DNA of 64,000 bases. Source: Phycisphaerae bacterium (GTDB lineage Bacteria > Planctomycetota > Phycisphaerae > SM23-33). How positions within the stretch are numbered: the stretch's first letter is position 1; each line of letters opens with the position of its first letter. Under the pieces are notes generated by a model. The model saw nothing but the letters and a program-made list of their open reading frames with translations, had not been told where the DNA came from and searched no databases. The DNA lies in contig JAWLCQ010000006.1 in assembly GCA_041687095.1 (NCBI GenBank), positions 2,965 to 66,964 on the forward strand, in the 5' to 3' direction. Below, in pieces: positions 988 through 60,694 of this stretch. A program made the position numbers and the translations under genes.

Positions 988-3246
988 GACCTCTTCGGGG
1001 ATCTCCAGGTGGGTGTAGGCGGCGACGATGGTTTTCTCGCCCAGGTGGGGGAAGAGGATCTTCACCCGCGTGTCGGGCCACGGTTGGGAGATGCTCGTCA
1101 CCTTCCCGATCCCGAACTTCGGATGGCGGACGAGGCACCCGACGCGGAGGTGCTCGTACTCGGGCGGGAAGGACGTGTCGGGCGGGGGCAGGTCGTCGAA
1201 GTCGGGGCGCGGACCGGCGGCGGATTCGATGGCGGAGCGGTCGTCCGCGTCGGCGTAGAAGCCCCCGGCGCGGTGGCGGAGTGCGGAGAAGCCTCGCGCC
1301 CCGCCCGCCCAGCCGCAGTCCTGCTCCTCCACGCCCTCGCCCTCCAGTTCGCTCAGGAAGCGGGACTCGGACTGGGACTCGCTGACCCCCCGCCGCCGCC
1401 GCATGCGGGCGCAGGAGATCGTCAGTTCGTCCATCGCCCGCGTCATGCCCACGAAGGCGAGCCGCCGCTCCTCCTCGATGTGGTCATGGTCGTCCCCGCC
1501 CTCGTCGAACCGCTGCATGGGCAGCAGCCCCTCCTCCCAGCCGATGACGAACACGACGGGGAATTCCAGGCCCTTGGCGGCGTGGAGGGTCATGAGGGTG
1601 ACGGCCCCGGCGGTCCCTTCGAGGTGGTCCACGTCTGAGATCAGCGAGACCTGGTAGAGGTAGTCCGCCAGCGAGGCGCCCGGGGACATCTCGTCGAACT
1701 CGGCCGCCTGGGAGCGGAGTTCCTCGACGTTGGACAGGGGGCGGTCGCCCTCCTTCTCGCGGGCCTGCTCCAGCGCCTGCTGGAGGCCGCTGCGCTCGAT
1801 GACCTGCTGCATGAGTTCGGCCACCCCGACGTGCAGGGACGCGCGGAACGAATCGATCATCTGCGCGAACGCCAGCACCTTGCCCGCGGCCGCGTTGCCC
1901 AGCCCCGTCTCGGGGGCGCGGCGGGCGGCGTCGAGGACAGACACGCCGCGGGTGCGGGCATAGTCGGCGAGGCGGTTCACCGTCGTCGCCCCGATCCCGC
2001 GGGGAGGCGTGTTGATGACCCGCAGGCAGCTCAGGTCGTCGACGGGGTTGACGAGAAGGCGGAGGTAGGCGATGACGTCCTTGATCTCCTTGCGGTTGTA
2101 GAACTCGACACCGCGGGCGATGCGGTACGGGACGCCCGCGCGGATGAGTTCTTCCTCGATGACGCGGGAGAGGGAGTTAATGCGGTAGAAGATGGCGATA
2201 TCGTCATAGTCGCGGCCCTCGTTGCGGGCGGCGGCGATGCGCCGGGAGAGTTCGCGGGCCTCGGCGTGCTCGTCGGCGCAGCGGACAACGTGGACGTTCC
2301 GCCCCCCCTCCCGCCGCGTCCACAGCCGCTTGTCCTTCCGCTGGAGGTTGTGGGCGATGAGGCGGGAGGCGCCTTCCAGGACGGGCCGCGTGGAGCGGTA
2401 GTTCTCCTCGAGGCGGACGACCTTGGCGTGGGGGTAGTCCTGCTCGAACTCGAGGATGTTGCGGATGTCCGCGCCCCGCCAGGCGTAGATGCTCTGGTCC
2501 GGGTCGCCCGTCGCGCAGAGGTTCTCGTGCTCCGACGCCAGCCCATGCGCCAGGATGTACTGCGCGCGGTTGGTGTCCTGGTACTCGTCGATGAGGATGA
2601 ACTGGTAGCGGTTGGAGAGCCCCACGCGGATGTCGGGGCGGGTGCGGAGCAGGAAGCACGTCCGCAGCAGCAGGTCGTCGAAGTCCAGGGCGTTGCGGGT
2701 GCGGAGGAGGCGTTCGTACTGCTCGTAGGCCTTGGCGACCTGGCGGGAGACGAAGTCCTCAGCGTGCTCGGCGAAGGCGGAGGCGGTCTGCAGGTCGTTC
2801 TTGGCGTTGGAGATCACCGAGTGGACGCGGGAGGGAATGAGGGACTGGGGGGGCAGCTCGGCGAGTTCCATGGCCTCCTTGAGGGTGCGGAGTTGGTCGT
2901 CGCGGTCGTAGATGGAAAAGTCGCCCAGGAGCTGGGCCTCGGCGGCGAACTCGCGGAGCAGCCGGGCGCACAGCGAATGGAACGTGCCGACGGTCGATCC
3001 TCGCGGGGCCCCGAGGGCTTCGACGCGGCGGGCCATCTCGCCCGCGGCCTTGTTGGTGAAGGTGATCGCCAGGATGCTCCAGGGCGCCACGCCCTGCTGG
3101 ATGAGGTAGGCGATGCGGCGGGTGATGACGCGGGTCTTGCCGGACCCCGCCCCGGCGAGGACGAGCAGCGGGCCTTCGACGTGCATCACAGCTTCGCGCT
3201 GGGGGTCGTTCAGATCGGCAAAAATATCCAAGCGGGCACACTCCAT
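985..3246 (-). CDS. ATP-dependent DNA helicase, UvrD/PcrA/Rep family
   Basis: It has the Walker A motif 'AGAGSGKTRV' and helicase motifs ('ITFTNKAAGEM', 'ILIDEYQDTN', 'ATGDPDQSIYAWRGA', 'LEENYRS', 'VTLMTLHAAKGLEFP'). The likely start is the ATG at 3246 (MECARLDIFADLNDPQREAV...). The antisense ORF 1831-3528 is spurious. Confidence 0.9.
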   Translation of the reverse strand: MECARLDIFADLNDPQREAVMHVEGPLLVLAGAGSGKTRVITRRIAYLIQQGVAPWSILAITFTNKAAGEMARRVEALGAPRGSTVGTFHSLCARLLREFAAEAQLLGDFSIYDRDDQLRTLKEAMELAELPPQSLIPSRVHSVISNAKNDLQTASAFAEHAEDFVSRQVAKAYEQYERLLRTRNALDFDDLLLRTCFLLRTRPDIRVGLSNRYQFILIDEYQDTNRAQYILAHGLASEHENLCATGDPDQSIYAWRGADIRNILEFEQDYPHAKVVRLEENYRSTRPVLEGASRLIAHNLQRKDKRLWTRREGGRNVHVVRCADEHAEARELSRRIAAARNEGRDYDDIAIFYRINSLSRVIEEELIRAGVPYRIARGVEFYNRKEIKDVIAYLRLLVNPVDDLSCLRVINTPPRGIGATTVNRLADYARTRGVSVLDAARRAPETGLGNAAAGKVLAFAQMIDSFRASLHVGVAELMQQVIERSGLQQALEQAREKEGDRPLSNVEELRSQAAEFDEMSPGASLADYLYQVSLISDVDHLEGTAGAVTLMTLHAAKGLEFPVVFVIGWEEGLLPMQRFDEGGDDHDHIEEERRLAFVGMTRAMDELTISCARMRRRRGVSESQSESRFLSELEGEGVEEQDCGWAGGARGFSALRHRAGGFYADADDRSAIESAAGPRPDFDDLPPPDTSFPPEYEHLRVGCLVRHPKFGIGKVTSISQPWPDTRVKILFPHLGEKTIVAAYTHLEIPEEV

Positions 3247-3321
3247 GCGGTCGGGGAATCCGAGTCCATTCCGCACCGGATGCGGGGCCAACGCCGCCGC
3301 CCGGTGGTCTCCAGCTTCCGT

Positions 3322-3533
3322 AACCGTTCACGCCTATGCACGCGGCGACAGGAGCCTGAAGAAACAGCCGGAGAGAAGGGGATTACACAGATTTCAGGAT
3401 TCCGCAGAAGAGAGAGAAGAGCGATGTTCTCCTTCTCCGTAATCTGCGCAATCTCATCATCTGCGAAATCCCTTTCTTCGGGGCTGTTTCTTCTCTTCAC
3501 GCCTTCGCTGCTGTCTGCGAGGGCGTGAACGGT
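3322..3533. repeat. Inverted-repeat-bounded noncoding element (~210 bp) with nested internal inverted repeats (IRs)
   Basis: The outer IR is GTAACCGTTCACGCC (3322-3336) against GGCGTGAACGGTTAC (3519-3533). An inner IR is GAAGAAACAGCC against GGCTGTTTCTTC. A hairpin CACGCCTTCGC..GCGAGGGCGTG at 3491-3525 also occurs at 50651-50683. A motif GGGATTACACAGATTTCA recurs at 9662-9690 as GGGATCACACAGATCTCA. Confidence 0.5.
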
Positions 3534-6219: not shown

Positions 6220-6338
6220 CCCCCCATCCTGCCGAGTGCGCGGCCCGGGAGCAAGAGGGGCGCAGCCGATTTTCCGTGGGAACCTGGCGAGTCCCCGCAC
6301 CCGCTGGCTGCGCCCCAAATCCGAAATCCCAAACGGGC

Positions 6339-6611
6339 CACAGAGACGCGGAGACGCAGAGGGAGAGGGAGTTGCGGATCGTCGTGTGCGAGGCACAGGG
6401 CGAGGTCCCGGGGGCAATGGGCTTCGGGCGCTGCGCCAAAAGGGCGAGCAGAGGGGGGCTCTCGCAGTAGACCCGGACGCGGCTTGCCTTTTGGCGCGAC
6501 GCCTCCCGCTCGGGGAGGCCCCGGACCCGCCCTCAATCCCGAACACGCTGTCAACGCCCGGAAGAGCAGTTTCCAGAACACCCTCTTCTCTGCGTCTCCG
6601 CGCCTCTGCGG
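6339..6611. repeat. Nested palindromic element (~270 bp) in the divergent intergenic region upstream of mutS2
   Basis: The outer IR is CACAGAGACGCGGAGACGCAGAGGGAGAGGG (6339-6370) against CCCTCTTCTCTGCGTCTCCGCGCCTCTGCGG (6581-6611). The inner IR is GGCGCTGCGCCAAAAGGGCGAGC against GCTTGCCTTTTGGCGCGACGCC. An AAATCCGAAATCCCAAAC motif at ~6300 recurs at 17945-18137. Confidence 0.5.
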
Positions 6612-6785
6612 CCCATTCTTCAGGGGCCCGATGTGCAGTTCCGCCCTGGAGGGAGAGCGTCCGAATGCCTGCCATCGCCGCACACCGCTGGGGGCCCGGC
6701 GATCGCAAGCGTCCGCCCGGGTTTTCCCCATACCCCTCCCGTGGGGGGATGGGCTATAATAGCGGGACCCTATAGAGAGCCGTTT

Positions 6786-9509
6786 GTGGATTCATTTACC
6801 CTGGACAAGGTTGAGTTCGACGAGGTTCGAAGGATCCTCTCGGGGTTCTGCTCCTGTTCGCTGGGGCGGCAGCTCGCCCTGCGGATCACCCCATCGCGGA
6901 ACCCGGAGATCATTCGCCGGTGGCTGGACCAAACGACGCAGATGGTCCGCGCCCTCCGCGATACGGGCCTCCCCCCCCTCGCCGGGGCCGCCGACGTCGG
7001 CGGGGCCCTCCACCGCACCACCCCGGGAGGCGGGGCCACGGGCGAGGATTTCGCCGCCGTCGCCTCCACCCTCGAAGCCGCCGAGAACGTCCGCGGGTTC
7101 CTCGTGAAGCTCCCCGAGGACCTCACCCTCCTCCTGGAGTTCACCGAGGGCCTCCCCGACTTCGCCCGCGAGATCGAGGCCATCCGGCGCGTCGTCGGCC
7201 CCGACGGGGCCATCCTCGACGACGCCTCCCCCCGCCTCTTCCAGACCCGCCGCGAGATCGAAACCGTCACCCAGCGCATCCACGACGTCATGTACAGCTA
7301 CGCTCGCCGCCCCGAGGTCGGAAAGCTGCTGCAGAACCCCACCGTCACGCTGCACGGGGACCGGTTCGTCCTGCCCGTCAAGTCCGAGAACCGCGGCCGC
7401 CTCCCGGGCGTCGTCCACCGCGCCTCCAACACCGGGGCCACCGTCTTCGTCGAGCCCGAGGCCTCCGTCGAACTCAACAACCGCCTCAACGACCTCTACG
7501 GGGACGAGCGGCTGGAGATCCAGCGGCTGCTGAGCGAGCTGGCCCTGCGCGTCCACGCCCGCTCCGAGGACATCGCCAAGGCCCTGCGCACGCTCGCCCA
7601 GGTGGACATGCTGTCGGCCAAGGCGCAGTACGCCTACCAGTTCGACATGACCTGCCCCGAGGTCCACGAGCACGGCCCGCTGCAGTTTGACGACGCGCGG
7701 CACCCGCTGCTGGTGGACCAGGTCTGGCGGCAGGAGAAGCAGGGCGTGCCTCCCGACAAGCGCCACACCGTCGTCCCCATCAGCGTGCGGCTGGGGCAGG
7801 ACTTCGACCTGCTCGTCATCACGGGGTCCAACACGGGCGGCAAGACGGTGGCGCTGAAGACGGTGGCGCTGCTGGTGCTGATGGCGCAGGCGGGGATGCA
7901 CATCCCCGTCCGCCGGGGCGCCCGCATGCCCACGTTCGGGGACGTGCTGATCGACATCGGCGACGAGCAGTCGCTCGAGCAGTCCCTCAGCACGTTCGGC
8001 GGTCACATCAAGCGGATCCGCTACATTCTCCAGAAGGCCGACAAGGCCTCCCTCGTCCTGCTCGACGAGCTGGGCAGCGGGACGGACCCCGACGAGGGCG
8101 GGGCGATCGGGCAGGCGGTGCTCGACGAACTCCGCCAGACCGGCTGCGTGGGGATGATCACCACGCACCTGAGCATCCTGAAGGCCTACGCCTTCAACCA
8201 TGAGCGGGTGGACAACGCGTCGGTGGAGTTCGACACCGTCACGCTCTCTCCCACGTACCACCTGCGGCTCGGAACCCCGGGCGAATCGCACGCCATCACC
8301 GTCGCGCAGAAGCTGGGCATGCCCAAACGGATCATGTCCATGGCGAGGCGGCACCTGAGCGAGCAGGGCAAGCAGTTCGCCAAGGCGATCCAGGCGACGA
8401 CGCAGGCCCGCGAATCGGCCGAGGTCGCCCGCCGCGACGCCCGCGACGCCCAACTCGCCGCCACCACCGAACAGGAGGCCTACCAGGCCAAGCTCGCCGA
8501 CGTCCAGCGCCTCCAGGAGGAGTTCGAGCACTGGCTCGCCACGCTGCCCGAACTCACCGAGGGCGACGAGGTCTTCGTCCCCTCGCTCCAGAAGGCCGGG
8601 CGACTCATCCGACTCGAACTCCACCGCCAGGTCGCCCTCGTCGCCGCCGACGCCGTCCAGGTCGAGGTCCCCCTCCGCGACCTCATGCCCGACCTCGGCC
8701 AGCAGGAGGTCCGCCGCCAGATCGCCGACCTCCGCCGCCAGATCACCGAGCAGTCCCGCCAGGCCCAGACCGCCCGCGTGGAGGCCCAACGCCTCCAGCA
8801 GGAGTTCCACCAGTCCATCGAGCGGCAGAAGGCGCAGGCGAAGCAGTTCGACCGCTGGCTGGGCCACATCGGGCGGGTAAAGGTCGGCGACGAGGTCCCC
8901 ATCGCCGTCAAGCCCGGGCACGGGATCGTCGTCGAACTCGACTTCAAGGCCCTCACCGCCGTCGTCCGCACCGGGGACGGGAAGGACGAGAAGCTCTCCA
9001 TCCAGGACCTGTTCCCCCAGACGGGCCCCTTCGCCCACATCCCGCGCGAGGCGCACGAGGGCGCCCAGCGGGGGCACGGAAAGGGCAAGGGGCGGCCCGG
9101 GGCTCCGCACCACGGGCGGACTCCCGAGCAGGCCCATCGCGGGGAGCACGCCCCCCAAGGCGAGCATGGACCGAAGGGCGAACACGCCCCGCATCAAGGC
9201 AAAGGCCGGCACGCCCCGGGCGAAGGCACGGGTGGGCACGGTCCGCGGGAGGACAAGCAGAAGGACCGCCCCGTCCCCCACCGCCATCCCAACAGCCGCT
9301 CCGCCCGCGAGAACCGCGACGCCCTCCTCGCCCTGCAGCCGGGCCAGCCCGTCTTCGTCGTCCCCTTCAACCAGCAGGCGACCCTCATCCGCTTCGCCGA
9401 CGACAAGTCCCAGGCGACGGTGCAGGCGGGCATCTTCGAGATGCGCGTCTCCGTGGCGGACCTGGAACTCGTCAAGGACACGGCCGGCCAGGCCGGTCAG
9501 GCGAAGTAG
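6786..9509 (+). CDS. mutS2: Endonuclease MutS2 (MutS domains III-V with ABC ATPase), lacking a recognisable Smr domain
   Basis: The N-terminus 'FTLDKVEFDEVRRIL' matches MutS2. It has Walker A 'ITGSNTGGKTVALKT' and 'LVLLDELGSGTDPDEG'. The likely start is the GTG at 6786 (AGAGAG upstream). Long coiled-coil region, then a His/Gly/Lys low-complexity tract and two KOW-like modules instead of Smr. The antisense ORF 6792-9839 is spurious. Confidence 0.85.
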   Translation: MDSFTLDKVEFDEVRRILSGFCSCSLGRQLALRITPSRNPEIIRRWLDQTTQMVRALRDTGLPPLAGAADVGGALHRTTPGGGATGEDFAAVASTLEAAENVRGFLVKLPEDLTLLLEFTEGLPDFAREIEAIRRVVGPDGAILDDASPRLFQTRREIETVTQRIHDVMYSYARRPEVGKLLQNPTVTLHGDRFVLPVKSENRGRLPGVVHRASNTGATVFVEPEASVELNNRLNDLYGDERLEIQRLLSELALRVHARSEDIAKALRTLAQVDMLSAKAQYAYQFDMTCPEVHEHGPLQFDDARHPLLVDQVWRQEKQGVPPDKRHTVVPISVRLGQDFDLLVITGSNTGGKTVALKTVALLVLMAQAGMHIPVRRGARMPTFGDVLIDIGDEQSLEQSLSTFGGHIKRIRYILQKADKASLVLLDELGSGTDPDEGGAIGQAVLDELRQTGCVGMITTHLSILKAYAFNHERVDNASVEFDTVTLSPTYHLRLGTPGESHAITVAQKLGMPKRIMSMARRHLSEQGKQFAKAIQATTQARESAEVARRDARDAQLAATTEQEAYQAKLADVQRLQEEFEHWLATLPELTEGDEVFVPSLQKAGRLIRLELHRQVALVAADAVQVEVPLRDLMPDLGQQEVRRQIADLRRQITEQSRQAQTARVEAQRLQQEFHQSIERQKAQAKQFDRWLGHIGRVKVGDEVPIAVKPGHGIVVELDFKALTAVVRTGDGKDEKLSIQDLFPQTGPFAHIPREAHEGAQRGHGKGKGRPGAPHHGRTPEQAHRGEHAPQGEHGPKGEHAPHQGKGRHAPGEGTGGHGPREDKQKDRPVPHRHPNSRSARENRDALLALQPGQPVFVVPFNQQATLIRFADDKSQATVQAGIFEMRVSVADLELVKDTAGQAGQAK

Positions 9510-9593
9510 CCCACGCAAAGGCCCAGAGACGCAAAGGGAAGAAGACACGCGGAGAAATGGGACTGCGCAGATGGGGAAGGACGGGAGGCTGTA

Positions 9594-9665
9594 CGGCATG
9601 GTCGCTTCAGCGATCCATGCTCCTGTGGTCCCCCGCACATGGATCGCTGAAGCGACCATGCCGGC
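9594..9665. repeat. Perfect 25-bp inverted repeat (GGCATGGTCGCTTCAGCGATCCATG ... CATGGATCGCTGAAGCGACCATGCC) with a ~20-nt loop, 85 bp downstream of the mutS2 stop
   Basis: Both arms are read directly and match perfectly. No T-tract follows. It could be a Rho-independent-like structure, a REP-like element or a protein-binding palindrome. Confidence 0.6.
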
Positions 9666-9967
9666 GCGCGGACTTGAGATCTGTGTGATCCCTTTCCCGC
9701 TGTGCTGCTTCTTCCCTTTGCGCCTCAGCACCTCTGCGTGAGCCCCGCCCCCGGCGCAAAGCGAAACCGGTGCGGACGTTTCCATCCGCACCGGCCCTGC
9801 TCCTCGGTTCGATCCATGGCAAAGGGGCAATGCGTACACGTTCTTTATCGGCGGAATGCTCGCGCGCCTTTGCGTAGCGGCGGAGGAAATCTACTCCGTT
9901 CGCGGCGGACTTCGACAGGCTCAGGACCAGCCCTTCGACAAGCTCAGGACCAGGCCGCCGCCGCGAA

Positions 9968-10288
9968 GGGGGCGCTCCAACGACGCTGCCGCGGAGGCCC
10001 CCCTCGCCCCTCCGGGACGCCGGGGGTCAGGAGACCCCCGGCGCAGGAGGTGGTGCGCGTGCGACGCCTCAAGCGCGTGCCGCCGCAAGCGCGTGCCGCC
10101 TCCAGCGCGTGCGTTGGGGGTCTCCTGACCCCCAACGTCCTGGAAGGACTACGAGCGCTTCCGCGATAGCGTTATGGCGGCGCTTCGATCGCGGCGATCC
10201 CCGCCGCGATGGGGGCGCTCCAACGACGCTGCCGCGGAGGCCCCCCTCGCCCCTCCAGGACGCCGGGGGTCAGGAGGCCCCCGGCGCA
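9968..10288. repeat. Two copies of a 79-bp direct repeat (9968-10046 and 10210-10288) within a hairpin-rich noncoding region spanning 9766-10440
   Basis: The copies differ at 2 positions. The associated tracts AGCGCGTGCCGCC x3 (10067-10112) and their reverse complement (10366-10425) sit in inverted orientation. Hairpins lie at 9766-9792 (10-bp stem), 10030-10047 and 10120-10145. A GCTCAGGACCAG tandem lies at 9917-9960. ORFs here are artefacts. Confidence 0.6.
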
Positions 10289-10471
10289 GACGCGCGGGAC
10301 GGGCCAGAGGACCCGCGACGCAGGCGCGTGCGAGATGTGCAGAATAATGAGGCCAGGAGACTCCCAACGCACGCGCTGGAGGCGGCACGCGCTTGGGGCG
10401 GTATGCGTTTGGGGCGGCACGCGCGCGTGAGGCGGCGAGGGTCGGCGGCGGGGACGTTGCGCTGGACGCCC

Positions 10472-13729: not shown

Positions 13730-14174
13730 GCGAACCGGATTGGGCGATGGCCCTGGAGAACTCAGGCGAGGACGCTGAACCCGCCGGGACGCGGGAAGCG
13801 GGAGTCGCAGCGGTTGGCGGCATAGCGGCCGGCGGCGACGGGACCGGCAGAGCAAGGGGCGTGAGGGACGCGGCGCGGCCGGACGTGCACCGTGCGCCGC
13901 GGGGACTCCGCCGCCCCGGAGGGGGCCGCGGCGGCATTCCTCGCCTCGTACCGCCCCTCGGGGAGCGGTGCGGGCGCGTCCTGCACACTCGCGCGGACAA
14001 GCCATTTGGGCTCGGGCGGCGGGTTGGGTGACATCGGTTCCGGCCTCGACTGGCCTCGGGGGCCAAACGTGTTTCAGACCGGTCTCCGTACCGTCAGGGC
14101 CTCCAAGAGCCCTCTCTCCTCCTGAAATTCCACTCTACCCCACAACCCGAAAACCGTCAAGGTGGGAAACGGCA

Positions 14175-17944: not shown

Positions 17945-18137
17945 GGTCGAAATCCGAAACCCGCAATCCCAAACTCGAAACAAGCCCGAAGCACGAAACT
18001 CGAAATCCCAAACAGCCCCCCGTTGTGCAGGGCTCCCCGGCACTCCGAGGCACGCACGGTGCGCAGCCCTTTGGGATTTCGTATCTTCGGTTTTGAATTT
18101 GTTTCGGATTTCGGGCTTCGCATTTCGGATTTCAAGA
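17945..18137. repeat. Lower-GC imperfect palindrome (~190 bp) built from GAAATCCGAAA / CGAAATCCCAAA motif copies in both orientations
   Basis: The left arm is 17945-18013 and the right arm 18069-18137; the ends match as reverse complements (gaaatccgaaa...cgaaatcccaaa). It lies ~370 bp upstream of pilB-1. A related motif occurs at ~6300. Confidence 0.5.
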
Positions 18138-32889: not shown

Positions 32890-33630
32890 CCACGAATTGC
32901 ACGAATTGCACGAAGGACGCGGGTGGCACGGATGACACGAAGAGGCTGAGCGGCGGACAACGCCGCGAGCCGCAAGCCCCGATCGCCGCTCGGGGATTCT
33001 GGAAGCCCAGGGGGAGCTTCCGGGATCCTCGAGCGGCGATTCTTTATTGGCCCCCACCTGCTCTGTCTCGACCCTCTGTTCCGGGGCCTCCCGGGGGCCG
33101 CCGTGCCCCCGAGCATGCGATCTTTCTTGGTAGACGACGGATCGGCCCCGGACCGACGGCCGCGGATCGGGCCGGTTCCCAAGGGTCGAGACAGAGCAGC
33201 CCCCACCCGGTTCGCCGCCGCCCTGCTGGGCACGGCGGCGGCCTCCGCTCGCGGGCGCCAGTGCGCAAATCATGGCGAGGTCCGCTTCCTCAGTTGCCCC
33301 CAGGCGGCCTCCGCTTGCGGGCGCCAGTGCGCAAATCCGAAGTGCACAAGCCCGAAGGGCTTTCAGAGCCGTAGCCCAGGGCCCAGCGCAGCGCCGCCCT
33401 GGGTACGGGCGATGGGGGTTTCCCGCCCTGAAAGGGCCCAAGAGCGCCCAGGCATTCTCTTGTGCCCCTTCAGGGCGAACACTCGTGGAACGGCGGACCC
33501 AGGGCGGCGGCCTGCGGCCTTGCCCGGGGCTACGGCTCTGGCAGCCCTTTGGGCTGCGGACTTCGTAAACCACGGCGCTCGCTTACCGTAGCCCACGGCA
33601 CTCGCTTACCGTAGCCCGGGGCATCCGCTT
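32890..33630. repeat. Composite repeat-rich noncoding spacer between the convergent operons
   Basis: It contains a tandem CACGAATTG x2 at 32890-32915, an IR at 32982-33042, and an IR GCTCTGTCTCGACCCTCTGTTCCGG (33060-33084) against CCGGTTCCCAAGGGTCGAGACAGAGC (33172-33197). A 35-bp direct repeat lies at 33236-33270 and 33304-33338. A nested palindrome spans 33365-33540 (CAGAGCCGTAGCCC / GGGCTACGGCTCTG). A 24-bp tandem x2 lies at 33571-33618. ORFs here are palindrome artefacts. Confidence 0.6.
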
Positions 33631-50650: not shown

Positions 50651-50885
50651 CAAACAGCGGCGAAGGCGTGAAGAGTGAGACTGCGTCGCAAGTGCTGTGG
50701 AGTGCGGTGCTTCAGCACCGCTTTGCACCCACGCGCATGTGTCCTGTGGAAGATTCCTCCGCACACCGAGCTTTGAAAACCTGTCAACGGCAGAGCCCCT
50801 GTCCATGAGACCGTTCAGCAGAGTCGGGCGTTCGCACTTGATCGACGTCCAGCGGAAAGCGGTGCTGAAGCACCGCACTCCATAG
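50651..50885. repeat. Structured noncoding element: hairpin CACGCCTTCGC..GCGAAGGCGTG (50651-50683) plus a 23-bp IR pair GGAGTGCGGTGCTTCAGCACCGC (50700-50722) / GCGGTGCTGAAGCACCGCACTCC (50860-50882)
   Basis: It is read directly from the sequence. Each IR arm is itself palindromic. The first hairpin is a near-copy of 3491-3525. Confidence 0.5.
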
Positions 50886-50992
50886 GGATTGCCTCCAAGT
50901 CCCGCGCACGCGCACGCAAAGCACGGTATACTGCTCTCCCCCTCCGGCGGCGATGTCCCCCCGCCCGAGGGGCAATCGATAAGGAGACGCAC

Positions 50993-53312: not shown

Positions 53313-53525
53313 CCGGGTCACCCCCCCGACGCAGTCGGGGGGCGTTGTCTTGCGCGGGTTTGCGGGAGACGAGACGCGTTTTCCGTTTAGCGGCGGTCGG
53401 TACGACCGCCCCGGGCGCTGCAGGATCTCCCGACCGGAGGCGGGCGTTCCGCCCGCCGCTAAACACAGAGACCAAAGAAGTTGACTGCTGATCGCTGATT
53501 GCTGAACGCTGATCGCTGATCGCTG

Positions 53526-56048: not shown

Positions 56049-56132
56049 CCTTAGCCTCAGGGTGCGTCTGACTGTCGAAGAAAACAACTCACGCGGGTGC
56101 ATCCCGGCGTTTACAGACGGTTTCAGAACTCA

Positions 56133-56230
56133 CCGCAGAGGTCGCAGAGAACGCAAAGGGAGAAGGGAATCCGGTGGGCATCCCATAGCCTCTCCGCTCT
56201 CTCTCTGCGTTCTCCGCGTTCTCTGCGGTG
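56133..56230. repeat. Imperfect palindrome built from CGCAGAGAACG-type units
   Basis: CACCGCAGAGGTCGCAGAGAACGCAAAGGG lies against CTCTGCGTTCTCCGCGTTCTCTGCGGTG. Related GAGACGCAGAG / CTCTGCGTCTC units occur at ~3400, ~6350, ~6590, ~9530 and ~9725. It lies between the dut 3' end and the ftsK start, so it is a terminator/promoter region. Confidence 0.5.
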
Positions 56231-56239
56231 AAATCTGCG

Positions 56240-56692
56240 TCACACGCCGGTGTGGCCGAACCCGCCGCTTCCGCGCACCGTTGCGTCCAGCGTCTCGACC
56301 TCCACCACCTCCGCCCTCGCCACCGGGGCGATCACCATCTGGGCGATCCGCATTCCGCGGCGAACCGTGAAGGCGTCGCGGCCCAGGTTGGCGAGGATCA
56401 CCTGCACCTCGCCCCGGTAGTCGGCATCGATCGTCCCGGGGCTGTTGGGCAGCGTGATCCCGTTCCGCAGCGCCAAACCGCTCCGCGGACGCACCTGCGC
56501 CTCGTAACCCACGGGCACCGCCATCGTGAACCCGCACGGGACCAGCACGATCCCGCCGGGCTCCAGAACCACGTCCTCACGGCACGCGGCGCAAAGATCC
56601 ATCCCGGCCGCATGGGCACTCATGTACCGCGGCAGCGGGACGTCCTCGTTGCCCGGCGTGCGGGCCATCTCCAGTATTATCGGACTGTTCAT
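56240..56692 (-). CDS. dut: dUTP diphosphatase (dUTPase)
   Basis: It has dUTPase motifs 'AAGMDLCA', '[29 protein letters not shown]' and '[10 protein letters not shown]'. It starts at the ATG at 56692, with RBS GGAGAGGG. Confidence 0.85.
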
Positions 56693-57913: not shown

Positions 57914-58040
57914 AAGGTGAGAGGTGAGAGGTTAGAGGTTAGAGGTTAGAGTCCGGCGGTCCGAGCGTGGGCGGTGATGCGAAGGTCCCGTCCGCGCCCG
58001 AGCGTCTGCCCTCTCACCTCTCACCTCTAACCTCTAACCT
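57914..58040. repeat. Inverted heptad-repeat arrays (GKTRAGA)x5 ... (CTCTNAC)x5 flanking a ~55-bp spacer
   Basis: GGTGAGAGGTGAGAGGTTAGAGGTTAGAGGTTAGAG (57916-57951) lies against CTCTCACCTCTCACCTCTAACCTCTAACCTCTACC (58006-58040). This allows a ~35-bp register-tolerant stem between the coaB stop and the URO-D-like start. Confidence 0.6.
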
Positions 58041-58667
58041 CTACCCTTTCCTCAACAGTTTCACGATCTCCGCCGCCAGTTCGTCCTTGGCCCGCTGGGC
58101 CCACGGCAGGACCACGCGGTCCCCCGCCAGGATGCACGCCCGCGACGCCTCGGTGCCCATGGCGGCCGGGGTGTTCACTACGACGTAGTCCGCGTGCTTG
58201 CGCGCCATCTCGCCGCGGGCCTTGGCCTCGATCTCCGCCTCCGCGCCGCTCTCGACGGCGAAGGCGATCACAAGCTGATCGGCCCGTTTGGTTCTCGCCA
58301 CGCCCGCCAGCACGTCCTCCGTCGGGACCAGGCGGATCGTGATCGGCCCCCCGCTGCGCGGGATCTTGCCGTTCACGCGGCCGGCGACGCGGAAGTCCCC
58401 CACCGCCGCCGTCATCACCAGCGCATCGCACTGGGCGAACCGCTCCGCAAGCTCGCGCTGCAGGTCCTCGACCGACACGAAGGGCACGACCCCGCACCCC
58501 GCAGGCGCCCCCAGGGCCACCGGCCCGCGCAGCAGCGTCACCTCGTGCCCCGCCCGCACCGCCGCCCCCGCCACCGCGCAGCCCATCCGCCCGCTCGACG
58601 CGTTGGTGATGAACCGCACGTCGTCGATGTACTCCCGCGTCGGACCCGCCGTCACGATCACTCGCAT
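58041..58667 (-). CDS. coaB: Phosphopantothenate--cysteine ligase, standalone CoaB domain (no fused CoaC)
   Basis: 'MRVIVTAGPTREYIDDVRFITNASSGRMG' is the CoaB N-terminal signature. No CoaC (flavoprotein) coding is seen upstream, where repeats lie instead. Confidence 0.8.
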   Translation of the reverse strand: MRVIVTAGPTREYIDDVRFITNASSGRMGCAVAGAAVRAGHEVTLLRGPVALGAPAGCGVVPFVSVEDLQRELAERFAQCDALVMTAAVGDFRVAGRVNGKIPRSGGPITIRLVPTEDVLAGVARTKRADQLVIAFAVESGAEAEIEAKARGEMARKHADYVVVNTPAAMGTEASRACILAGDRVVLPWAQRAKDELAAEIVKLLRKG

Positions 58668-58737
58668 CCCCAGAGCCTACCCATCCCCCCCCGCCGATGC
58701 AACCGCCCCGCCCGCGACAGCGCCATCGCAACCCCTC

Positions 58738-58795
58738 AGTCGCGGGTGCCACGGCTGCGCTGTTCACAGCCGTGCTCGCACGAGCGCCCGGGGGA
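58738..58795. repeat. Family B repeat copy (degenerate, no right TIR)
   Basis: 50 of 52 bp are identical to 13642-13694. Confidence 0.5.
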
Positions 58796-58859
58796 ATCCG
58801 GTTTCTGCAAGCCCCGTTGTTCTACACGTCTCGGACCTCGCGGGGCGGCTGGGACACAT

Positions 58860-59200
58860 CTCCCGGCATCCCTGCCGGGACGCGCCTCCGGGCGTCCCGA
58901 GAGGGATGCATCTCCGGGCTTCCCGGCAGGGACGCTGTGACAATAGCCCAGCAGTTCACTGCTGGGACCCGGGCACCCCCCCCTTCCTTTTCTTCTTCTC
59001 AAGCCCCGGGAGGGGCGATTGAGGGCGCGCCGTGGCCCCATCCCTCAATCGCCCCTGCCGGGGCTCAAACTCCCGCGCGACCGTTACCCAGCAGTGAACT
59101 GCTGGGCTATTCTCAATCCGTCCCTGCCGGGACTCCGGAATCGCGTCCCTCCCGGGACTCCAGAGTCGCATCCCTGCCGGGACGCCCGGAAGCTCCCTGT
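58860..59200. repeat. ~340-bp nested palindrome / repeat array built from 'RTCCCTGCCGGGAC' units
   Basis: Centre arms are TCAAGCCCCGGGAGGGGCGATTGAGGG (58995-59021) against CCCTCAATCGCCCCTGCCGGGGCTCAAAC (59041-59069). The next layer is GTGACAATAGCCCAGCAGTTCACTGCTGGG (58938-58967) against CCCAGCAGTGAACTGCTGGGCTATTCTCAAT (59087-59115). The outer layer is CCCGGCAGGGACGC against CGTCCCTGCCGGG. A 25-bp tandem x3 lies at 59113-59190. A related CCCCTGCATCCCCTGCATCCCTGCC lies at 797-830. Confidence 0.6.
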
Positions 59201-59752
59201 CCGGCCCCCCCGAAACTCCCTGTCCCCGACAACAGGCAGACCTTGCGCTGCCCGATGCCAGGGTGCCGAGATGCGTAGAGCAACGCGTTCTGCGAACCCA
59301 TGGCGGCCGGCGATGTACAGCAGTCCCCCCCTAAGTAGTAGCACTGCCCAAAAGTCCGCAAAAGCGGCCCGCCATTTTGGCAGTTTGGAAGTTTTTTTTC
59401 ATGGATACATGCACAGTCAAGACGGACACGAAGCACAAGCCTCATGTGAAGCACATGTTAGACCCAATAGGGACGGCAGGAGTGCGGAATGGAGAAAAAT
59501 GAGCGGCAGGGGAAGCGGAGGGTCGGGAGAAGTCGGAATACTCAGAACACTCGCAGTCAACGAAGGAGGATATGGGCGGATCGAGCCGACCGGCGGCGGG
59601 AGGGGGAGAGCAAGCGTTTACGCAGGTTCCCCCCCTCACGCCCAACTTCCCGCACCGCACCCTCTTCCCTCCGCCCCGCCCCTGCCCTACACTGCCAACG
59701 AATGCAGGGCAGTTCCCTCCCGCAGTTACGCTGGCCGACACGAAGGCAGACC

Positions 59753-60694
59753 ATGACGCCGATCCGCCTCATCGCGATCCACCAGGACGGCTCGCCCGCC
59801 GAGCCCGTCGCCCCCCTGGGGCCCGAGGTCCGCGACGCACTCACCGGCACGGCCGGGATGTACCGCTCCAGCGGCTACCAGCCGCCGTGGATCGGCTACC
59901 TGGCCATGGAGGGCGACGCGGCCGTCGGGACCTGCGCCTTTAAGTCGCCCCCGCAGAACCACCGCGTGGAGATCGCCTACTTCACGTTCCCGCCCCACGA
60001 GGGGCGGGGGGTGGCGACGGCGATGGCGGAGGCACTCATCGCCCTCGCCCGCCATACCGATCCCTCGCTCACCCTCACCGCCCAGACGCTCCCGGAGGAC
60101 GGTGCCTCGACGCGGATCCTCCGCAGGCTCGGGTTCGGCCTTGCGGATGAGGTCGTGCATCCCGAGGACGGAACGGTGTGGGAGTGGCGGCTTGCCCCGT
60201 TGCCCATACCCGCCACCCCCCTCCGCCTGCTTCTGCTGGGCAACGCGGGGGCGGGCAAAAGCACCCTCGCCCGCCGCCTCATCGCCGGACGCCCCATCCC
60301 GCGACTGTCCCTGGACGCCATCGCCTGGACCGCCGGGACGCAACGAAGCCCCCTCCAACGGAGCCGCCGCGAACTGCTGGACTTCATCCGCCGCCACGAC
60401 GAGTGGGTCATCGAGGGCTGCTACGGCGACCTGATCGAGACCGCCCTGCCGCACTGCACCGAACTGTGGTTCCTCAACCCGGGCGTGGATGTCTGCGTCG
60501 AGCACTGCCGGAACCGGCCATGGGAGAGCGAGAAGTTCAACACCCCCACCGAGCAGGCGGCCATGCTGCCGCAGCTCATCGACTGGGTGAAGCAGTACGA
60601 GACGCGCGACGACGAGTACGGCCTGCCCCGGCACCGCCGGATCTTCGAGGAGTTCCGCGGGCCCAAACGAGAGTTCACCGGAAAGGAAAGCTGA
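59753..60694 (+). CDS. Fusion protein: N-terminal GNAT N-acetyltransferase domain plus C-terminal P-loop NTPase (adenylate-kinase/topology-modulation-like)
   Basis: The GNAT motif A is 'HEGRGVATAMAEAL'. The Walker A is 'LLLGNAGAGKSTLARRL'. It starts at the ATG at 59753, and its stop overlaps the next start (TGATG). Confidence 0.7.
   Translation: MTPIRLIAIHQDGSPAEPVAPLGPEVRDALTGTAGMYRSSGYQPPWIGYLAMEGDAAVGTCAFKSPPQNHRVEIAYFTFPPHEGRGVATAMAEALIALARHTDPSLTLTAQTLPEDGASTRILRRLGFGLADEVVHPEDGTVWEWRLAPLPIPATPLRLLLLGNAGAGKSTLARRLIAGRPIPRLSLDAIAWTAGTQRSPLQRSRRELLDFIRRHDEWVIEGCYGDLIETALPHCTELWFLNPGVDVCVEHCRNRPWESEKFNTPTEQAAMLPQLIDWVKQYETRDDEYGLPRHRRIFEEFRGPKREFTGKES

Follow-up and report, generated by a model that had tools for sequence, protein, structure and literature searches.

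What is the large palindrome that lies between a coaB-type gene and a divergent gene for a GNAT acetyltransferase with a kinase-like domain in a Phycisphaerae genome, and does it serve these two genes? The element occupies positions 58848-59230 of a 64,000-nucleotide stretch of contig JAWLCQ010000006.1 (hereafter the window, meaning the whole stretch of DNA that was analysed), and a preliminary description had presented it as a multi-layer palindrome with a tandem array that could extrude as a cruciform, encode a long structured RNA or form an array of protein-binding sites. In our analysis the palindrome is probably a non-autonomous, transposase-less member of a dispersed hairpin-repeat family that resembles the bacterial interspersed mosaic elements (BIMEs) and the hairpin-forming doublets (REPINs) of repetitive extragenic palindromic (REP) sequences. 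It is best read as selfish or domesticated repeat DNA and not as a regulatory device specific to the coaB locus.

The element is assembled from two kinds of hairpin. Hairpin A (rTCCC-N4-GGGAy, GTCCC-N4-GGGAC type) is 14 nt long with a 5-bp stem and a 4-nt loop; hairpin B, 20 nt in the window, has an 8-bp stem (CCCAGCAG-TGAA-CTGCTGGG) after which come CTAT, a linker of about 10 nt and an A. They are arranged in the order A.A.A-B-A'-(34 nt)-A'-B-A.A.A. Read along the plus strand, A units at 58868, 58894 and 58920 are followed after 10 nt by the minus-strand copy of B (58944-58966), after a further 36 nt by A' (59003), after 34 nt by the second A' (59051), after 22 nt by the plus-strand copy of B (59087-59109) and, 10 nt on, by A units at 59120, 59145 and 59170 with two decayed units beyond. 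Linkers in the left array are of the GCCCGGAGatGC type, as read on the minus strand, and those in the right array are TCCGGAATCGC and variants of it. In the inner palindrome the left half consists of A' GCCCCGGGAGGGGC (59003-59016) and GATTGAGGG and is followed by a 16-nt loop, after which the right half consists of CCCTCAATC and A' GCCCCTGCCGGGGC (59051-59064).

The three concentric layers of inverted repeat are the inner A' pair, the pair of B-A modules and the amplified outer A units. The inner layer, formerly placed at 58995-59021 and 59041-59069, is a genuine palindrome, but its arms were relocated to 59002-59025 and 59042-59065 (24 nt, 96% complementary, 16-nt loop). The middle arms had been given as 30 bp long with self-palindromic content; this content was present, but the arms extend over 46 nt (58921-58966 and 59087-59132, 91% complementary). 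The outer inverted layer was recovered at 58884-58926 and 59151-59193 (77% complementary), where it is made of tandem units. The 25-bp tandem array reported on the right was detected with Tandem Repeats Finder (TRF) at 59115-59191 (period 25, 3.1 copies), and two degenerate units lie beyond it (period 23, 2.4 copies, up to about 59225); its mirror array on the left had been overlooked. The 20-bp self-palindrome CCCAGCAGTKMACTGCTGGG is present once in each middle arm and nowhere else in the 64 kb (two occurrences, 0.01 expected), and a search for the 12-mer CCCTGCCGGGAC with at most one mismatch returned seven sites in the window (1.9 expected), six of them within the element. A supposed recurrence of the motif at 797-830 and near 13760 had to be dropped because only 11-mers are shared there (CATCCCTGCCT and CGCCGGGACGC), which is chance level. 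Region 58840-59230 was folded on both strands with RNA parameters and gave one long hairpin each time (plus strand −251 kcal/mol, z −14.2; minus strand −283 kcal/mol, z −15.4), and with DNA parameters it gave −127 kcal/mol (z −15.4); z-scores were calculated against 100 shuffles, of which none folded as well. The hairpin potential behind the cruciform proposal is real and extreme (z about −14 to −15).

Both B-A half-sites of the element are of the Acido-Lenti-1 type. The right module aligned with the whole of the Rfam model RF01687 (Acido-Lenti-1; 8-bp hairpin, GGCUA linker and 5-bp hairpin; model positions 1-46 of 46) at 59087-59134 on the plus strand (34.6 bits, E 6.8e-6), and the left module at 58893-58966 on the minus strand (26.8 bits, E 9e-4). 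These matches were seen with permissive filters on a short region, the scan of the window in gathering mode being empty; microRNA matches that appeared in the permissive scan were of the generic long-hairpin kind, far under threshold, and were rejected. An independent covariance model (R2), built from 36 metagenome copies without the window sequence, scored the right module at 56.5 bits (E about 2e-20) and the left module at 45 bits (E about 6e-16).

The module is dispersed widely. A genome collection was scanned for two A units 11-16 nt apart, which yielded 36 matches, mostly single chance ones in unrelated phyla; the same A and B hairpins were found in a Planctomycetota metagenome-assembled genome (MAG; locus L015) and in a Gemmataceae MAG (L006 and L016), with compensatory differences between their B stems. 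Metagenomes were scanned with the pattern TGGGCTA-N7-12-GTCCCTRMCGGGAC, which leaves hairpin B unspecified, and the module was found in at least 120 loci of 39-69% G+C. Named genomes that bear it belong to the Planctomycetota and Acidobacteriota, and collections of plasmids and phages contained no DNA match to the element. In the family hairpin B has the form CCCA-N4-loop-N4-TGGG followed by CTAY, and the complementary strand reads (G/A)TAG and the hairpin. A perfect 8-bp B stem was present in 87 of 129 unique environmental copies compared with 6% of control TGGG sites, and 35 different inner 4-bp stems occurred among the environmental copies. An alignment of 42 sequences contained four covarying pairs, with 65 double-sided changes against 22.5 ± 3.5 after shuffling (a number reached in 0 of 500 shuffles), and pairing in hairpin B fell from 98% to 27-47% when the partner was slid out of register. 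Positions in the B stem that departed from Watson-Crick pairing were rare (23 of 856, 2.7%) and symmetric (6 G.T and 6 A.C), which suggests that selection acted on the hairpin as DNA, or on both strands, and not on a one-strand RNA; constraint at the DNA level is inferred because hairpin B covaries strongly without an excess of G.T. The copies are overwhelmingly inverted pairs, and across the family 46% of modules lie in long open reading frames (ORFs) compared with 87% of random positions (p 2e-20).

Genes for Y1 transposases lie beside these modules. The ORF next to the module cluster of the Planctomycetota MAG matched Pfam Y1_Tnp (89 bits) and the NCBIfam model for IS200/IS605 insertion sequences (IS; 72 bits, cutoff 55), and IS200-like Y1 homologues were detected by tblastn in 21 module-bearing loci, within tens of nucleotides of the modules; around tnpA, 36 RF01687 matches at or above the gathering score were counted in 20 loci. 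The cassettes have the geometry A-9-B(-)-~23-A-~11-[tnpA, ~440 bp]-~18-A-~24-B(+)-9-A, with distances in nt (L057, L071, L045, L100 and L086), or the shorter form A-B-[tnpA]-B-A (L113, L043, L127 and L078). All 15 full-length transposases have kept the HUH, WQxGY and Y---Q--HH motifs and look functional. The closest solved structure was IS608 TnpA (E 2e-11); in the alignment HVHML corresponds to HIHIL and AYIENQ to QYIENQ, which holds the catalytic tyrosine, and the structure of the E. coli REP-associated tyrosine transposase (RAYT) gave no match at E ≤ 1. Homologues in the plasmid collection were distant (<40% identity). In the single case examined, two cassettes of one locus (L127) were 86.7% identical over 624 bp and are therefore old paralogues, not recent IS copies.

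Two further observations were made at transposase-bearing loci. The Y1 gene at L015:5458-5900 is broken into two reading frames that overlap (pieces 5900-5598 and 5613-5458 in tblastn) and is either a frameshifted pseudogene or the product of an assembly error. On metagenome contigs of peat or bog type, tandem arrays of the entire 69-bp B-A module with its linker, in four to eight copies, adjoin a Y1 transposase (L062:28-374 and 3088-3340; L104:9218-9728); a CRISPR-like reading of these arrays was rejected, the whole 69-bp unit being repeated with no variable spacers.

The window element is the gene-less form of the cassette. Distances from B(-) to the next B(+) are bimodal: about 35 dimers of 84-170 nt (median about 102) contain no gene and about 12 of 530-562 nt contain tnpA, the distance in the window being 120 nt. 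The inner A hairpins of the cassettes stand about 11 and about 18 nt from the ends of the ORF, and loss of the ORF alone therefore predicts 27-34 nt between them, as is seen in gene-less copies. In the window the inner palindrome fills the place that the transposase gene has in autonomous relatives, and the gap from left B to inner A is 36 nt (58967-59002) compared with about 23 nt in related elements. An inner A, GATTGA...TCAATC and a second inner A are common to the window and to gene-less dimers from unrelated samples (L060, L126 and L148), and gene-less dimers and tnpA occur together on the same contigs (L015 and L050). The concentric arms and the 25/26-bp arrays are thus explained by a gene-less cassette whose outer A unit was amplified threefold on each side.

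Systems of this kind are known, and the comparison was drawn from work on REP, BIME and REPIN-RAYT systems of E. coli and Pseudomonas (PMC3333891, PMC3116915, PMC2817692). There, TnpA-REP binds and cleaves single-strand REP, and precise loss of tnpA with retention of the flanking BIMEs has been described in REPtrons (PMC3333891). The present family shares with REPs, BIMEs and REPINs the short intergenic palindromes, the inverted doublets that form a larger hairpin and the local tandem amplification, and possibly also the four conserved bases at the foot of the hairpin, which read (G/A)TAG on the opposite strand, a likeness that depends in part on the search pattern; with REPtrons it shares a Y1 HUH gene bracketed by repeats and gene-less versions that keep the flanks. 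Unlike in REPtrons, the protein is IS200-like and not a class 2 TnpA-REP, and the repeat is a fixed two-hairpin module (A-B or A-B-A) and not a single REP. The (G/A)TAG 5' of the hairpin is a hallmark of REPs that is needed by E. coli TnpA-REP (PMC3333891). In the family the complementary strand carries GTAG, ATAG or TTAG in 46, 64 and 16 of 129 copies, with CTA fixed by the scan pattern, and the window has ATAG, whereas REPs have a conserved GT[AG]G; the conserved GGCUA of the RF01687 consensus is the sole support for the tag that is independent of the scan pattern.

The transposases were compared with described Y1 groups in the same manner. Like IS608 TnpA of the IS200/IS605 family they have the HUH and catalytic tyrosine motifs, and the hairpins beside the gene fit recognition of single-strand hairpins; IS200/IS605 elements, however, end in a pair of unlike hairpins that share one strand, and the flanks of the present family are instead mirror images, B(-)...B(+), with A inside and outside. 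Y---Q--HH is the signature of TnpA-Y1 subclass 1.2 (Quentin et al. 2018, PMC6006769), to which the family is assigned by this motif signature only. The subclass was earlier said to lack IS properties and associated terminal structures (PMC6006769), unlike the family cassettes with their conspicuous flanking hairpins. TIRtrons/TIRYTs and class 3 Y1 elements are similar in that Y1 genes are flanked by inverted, partly self-complementary repeats that are also dispersed as dimers or clusters, and both have been reported in Acidobacteria and Planctomycetes (PMC3733652, PMC6006769). Subclass 2.1, with a GGGGWSAS motif, accounts for most TIRYTs (Di Nocera et al. 2013, PMC3733652), and class 3 Y1 proteins ('atypical secondary structures') have NHVH, W[TA] and YV..EQ motifs and a CnGA foot (PMC6006769). 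Assignment of the family to either group was rejected since its motifs (DHVH/NHVH, WQ and YI..Q..HH) and hairpins do not fit.

By analogy to IS608 TnpA and E. coli TnpA-REP (PMC3333891, PMC6006769), the hairpins would fold in single-stranded DNA, such as that of the replication fork, and a putative cognate Y1 transposase encoded elsewhere in the genome would bind and cut them; gene-less dimers may have been moved or copied in trans by this enzyme. The tandem A units could have arisen by local amplification, as reported for BIMEs. Because both arms hold three homologous A and linker units of the GCCCGGAGatGC type, the arms may have been copied from each other after amplification or been kept alike by templated repair. 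Effects on the expression of coaB or the GNAT-kinase gene, if any, would be a by-product.

Several observations weigh against a REPIN-like origin. No Y1 transposase was detected in the 64-kb window by tblastn, none even at E 10 and with the element interior included, and the window holds one family copy only, model R2 having found no further full copy. Both modules score below the RF01687 gathering score of 37 bits, which the modules of related loci exceed (38-56 bits). Since the search pattern prescribed hairpin A and the CTA of the tag, their conservation in metagenomes is in part by construction. The transposase of the family is not a canonical RAYT (NCBIfam REP_Tyr_transpos 22.9 bits, cutoff 80), and triple A arrays on both sides are unusual in the family. 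Classical REPs are mostly located where the neighbouring genes run in one direction or converge (Di Nocera et al., PMC3733652); a place between divergent genes is not typical of them.

The divergent gene context noted in the preliminary description was borne out (Table 1). The element lies within a 1.08-kb divergent intergenic region, 180 bp from the start codon of the CoaB-domain gene. The GNAT-kinase gene was delimited from Pfam matches, the ORF list and codon-position GC content; its ORF is open from 59489 and its start is probably near 59753 (MTPIRL...). The best homologue of the CoaB-domain protein in the protein collection was 73% identical, and named matches were from Planctomycetota/Phycisphaerae MAGs. 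In the nearest relatives the gene order is gmk-rpoZ-coaC-coaB-UroD-like-dut-ftsK, with coaC immediately upstream of coaB (185-bp spacer) where the window has the element; no module was found in the coaC-coaB spacer or in the rest of the 2-6 kb of relative DNA examined. Region 58668-59752 of the window was compared with L001:1165-1349 and with L002: the relatives carry yicC-gmk-rpoZ-coaC-coaB, and coaC, rpoZ, gmk and yicC are missing from the 64-kb window, which has the divergent GNAT-kinase gene instead. Since the window is without coaC, rpoZ and gmk, a synteny break coincides with the position of the element, immediately upstream of coaB. The stretch 59300-59560, on the side of the element towards the GNAT-kinase gene, has a lower GC content (52-57%), is purine-rich and contains a T8 run at about 59392-59399 after a weak hairpin (CCAAAAG...CATTTTGG); it gave no Rfam match and could serve as a terminator or belong to a 5' leader or a small transcript.

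Table 1. Features of the palindromic element and its two neighbouring genes (positions in the window; strand '.', not assigned to one strand).
Feature	Position	Strand	Description
Whole composite palindromic element	58848-59230	.	gene-less dimer with amplified outer units; single long hairpin with inverted and direct repeats
Left outer array	58851-58935	.	TRF period 26, 3.3 copies; mirrors right array
Hairpins A of left outer array	58868-58881, 58894-58907, 58920-58933		three 26-bp units, each A and a linker of ~12 nt
Left B-A module (Acido-Lenti-1-type)	58920-58966	-	hairpin B 58947-58966, hairpin A 58920-58933
Tag of left module	58943-58946		ATAG, i.e. CTAT on the minus strand
Pyrimidine-rich spacer, left hairpin B to inner hairpin	58967-59001	.	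from sequence
Inner palindrome	59002-59065	.	24-nt arms, 96% complementary
Right B-A module (Acido-Lenti-1-type)	59087-59133	+	hairpin B 59087-59106, tag CTAT 59107-59110, linker, hairpin A 59120-59133
Right outer array	59115-59230	.	three 25-bp units, then two degenerate 23-bp units
CoaB-domain protein (phosphopantothenoylcysteine synthetase domain)	58041-58667	-	Pfam PF04127 DFP, 175 bits
GNAT acetyltransferase and P-loop kinase-like protein	59753-60694	+	Pfam Acetyltransf_3/Acetyltransf_1, weak AAA_33

Four other explanations were weighed, each much less likely than the REPIN/BIME-like one. An unlikely one, which is compatible with a repeat origin and overlaps it as a secondary function, is that an immobile element was co-opted for a structural role in the host, be it binding of gyrase, IHF or Pol I or insulation or stabilization of transcripts, roles suggested for E. 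coli BIMEs, or action as a cruciform or recombination hotspot; host roles of REPs and BIMEs have been reviewed (PMC3333891, PMC3733652). The very stable hairpin or cruciform potential and the coincidence of the element with the synteny break speak for it, as do the strong hairpins in about half of the intergenic regions of the window, which imply that the genome tolerates or uses such structures. However, a T-run for intrinsic termination is missing, the element stands upstream of both neighbours and not at a 3' end, and it is not conserved at the locus in the nearest relatives.

Slightly less probable is that the modules are genes for small structured RNAs (sRNAs), in which case the window would hold two convergent copies of the Acido-Lenti-1 sRNA with transcripts acting in trans. 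Acido-Lenti-1 was described from Acidobacteria and Lentisphaerae as a probable trans-acting sRNA, 'sometimes near group II introns', and with 89 representatives was rated a probable RNA from covariation (Weinberg et al. 2010, PMC2864571); the RF01687 matches (E 7e-6 and 9e-4) and the strong covariation of hairpin B agree with this, although covariation alone cannot tell RNA from single-strand DNA hairpins. Against an RNA, inverted pairs produce the same structure on both strands, and G.T equals A.C in the 856 pairs (6 and 6); in RNA helices, by contrast, G.U on one strand is normally tolerated. The modules moreover bracket Y1 genes at fixed spacing, and whole 69-bp units are repeated in tandem arrays. 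No sigma-70-like promoter was detected in or next to the window element by a scan that covered sigma-70 signals only, from which Planctomycetota promoters may differ, and no intrinsic terminator-like site (GC-rich hairpin and T-run) was found within 58848-59230. The long structured RNA specific to this locus that had been proposed is likewise unsupported, the element being strand-symmetric, with no promoter or terminator signal and no G.U-type mismatch bias. The window copies differ from Acido-Lenti-1 as described in that they occur in a Planctomycetota genome, as inverted pairs of a Y1-transposase-linked family and without a G.U signature; no statement on a link to transposases, or on a dimeric or palindromic unit of higher order, was found in the text and supplementary files of Weinberg et al. 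2010 that were searched.

Regulation specific to the locus, in which rTCCC-N4-GGGAy sites would be palindromic operators of a dimeric DNA-binding protein at divergent coaB and GNAT-kinase promoters, is very improbable. The position between divergent genes would suit an operator array, as would a 14-bp site with dyad symmetry that is repeated eight to ten times and spaced 25-26 bp apart in the outer arrays. However, the same sites recur with hairpin B at fixed spacing in at least 120 unrelated genomic contexts, coaC directly precedes coaB in the relatives, in whose examined DNA no module was found, and the promoter scan, with its limitation to sigma-70, was negative. Of the earlier proposal of a protein-binding-site array, the recognition sites very probably stand, as sites for a single-strand DNA transposase, but a regulator of coaB and the GNAT-kinase gene does not; the sites are read as directed at a transposase because the modules flank genes for Y1 transposases and are met in at least 120 environmental loci unrelated to one another. 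Chance, or the low complexity of a GC-rich genome, for which the 68% G+C of the window and the commonness of short GC-rich inverted repeats could be cited, is refuted by the fold z-scores (−14 to −15, 0 of 100 shuffles as good), the 20-mer palindrome (two occurrences, 0.01 expected) and the independent covariance model (E 1e-16 to 1e-20).

Other hairpins were observed in the window and in related genomes. Of 19 intergenic regions of at least 60 bp in the window, 10 fold at z ≤ −5 relative to dinucleotide shuffles (9 of them at z ≤ −7.6; range −5 to −21), compared with z between −2.1 and +0.9 for 12 coding controls. Most of these other hairpins have arms built of different short tandem units, and the RF01687 family is represented by the studied element only. 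A second composite palindrome at 33349-33555 has the same grammar with other sequences: its left half reads AGCCC-GAA-GGGCT, 9 nt, GTAG and CCCAGGGC...GCCCTGGG, and its right half is a mirror that ends in CTAC, 9 nt and AGCCC-TTT-GGGCT. It was rejected as a family copy (no RF01687 match, only 13 bits with the module models) and may be a diverged sister family. Three long hairpins at 6320-6632, 9505-9750 and 56120-56240 have arms of yTCTGCG-type nonamer units (consensus about CCCTyTGCGTyTCyGCGnCTCTGCGG); their two-unit motif occurs four times in the window compared with 0.035 times in shuffled sequence and only twice in 0.95 Mb of other loci, and they apparently form a hairpin family of their own, specific to this genome.

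A heptad-array hairpin at 57914-58048, (AGGTKAG)x5 facing (CCTCTMA)x5, lies in a spacer of 148 bp that separates the stop of coaB from the start of the UroD-like gene; in a relative (L001) this spacer has only 11 bp, and the hairpin is therefore a lineage-specific insertion. A very large composite palindrome lies between convergent genes at 9959-10426, with outer arms of 16-bp units (GCGCGTGCCGCCTCAA, 3.5 copies, facing GCACGCGCTTGGGGCG, 3.5 copies) and internal duplicated sub-palindromes; the intergenic region 9510-10471 folds at z −21. Further hairpins were seen at 3358-3493, at 17947-18133 (14-bp units, 5 copies, and 7-bp units, 4.6 copies), at 32982-33199, at 50679-50901 (GCGGTGC-TGAA-GCACCGC) and at 53385-53464 (followed by 5.6 copies of GCTGATC). 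In a Planctomycetota groundwater MAG, at least three copies of a repeat of at least 250 bp (L027:~240-440, L031:~2720-2920 and L038:~1560-1770) are centred on the 44-nt perfect palindrome CACTCCCTGCCGGGAGGCCCTCGAGGGCCTCCCGGCAGGGAGTG, which contains TCCCTGCCGGGA; this repeat is without hairpin B and was rejected as a family member, being an unrelated repeat.

Beyond the window, we lean towards the view that the Acido-Lenti-1 'sRNA' is a DNA hairpin module and belongs to a system of the REPtron/REPIN type, with IS200-like subclass 1.2 Y1 transposases as its driving enzymes and a wide distribution in soil and water Acidobacteriota and Planctomycetota; the window element would be one of its gene-less replicators. 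Although the kind of system is known, this pairing of repeat and enzyme and the reinterpretation of RF01687 were not found in the literature searched. At the coaB locus, the tempting reading as a bespoke regulatory array or a long RNA is replaced by repeat-element biology. A candidate sRNA, an IS200-like Y1 subclass and REPIN-like gene-less palindromes, three separate descriptions so far, are apparently one system. If this is true, an orphan transposase subclass would gain a substrate and a function and an Rfam family would be reassigned; if confirmed, hairpins A and B with the CTAY/(G/A)TAG tag would be defined substrates for an uncharacterised clade of HUH enzymes, matches to RF01687 in annotations would likely mark the ends of mobile elements and not sRNA genes, and REPIN/RAYT-type biology would extend to the Planctomycetota and Acidobacteriota.

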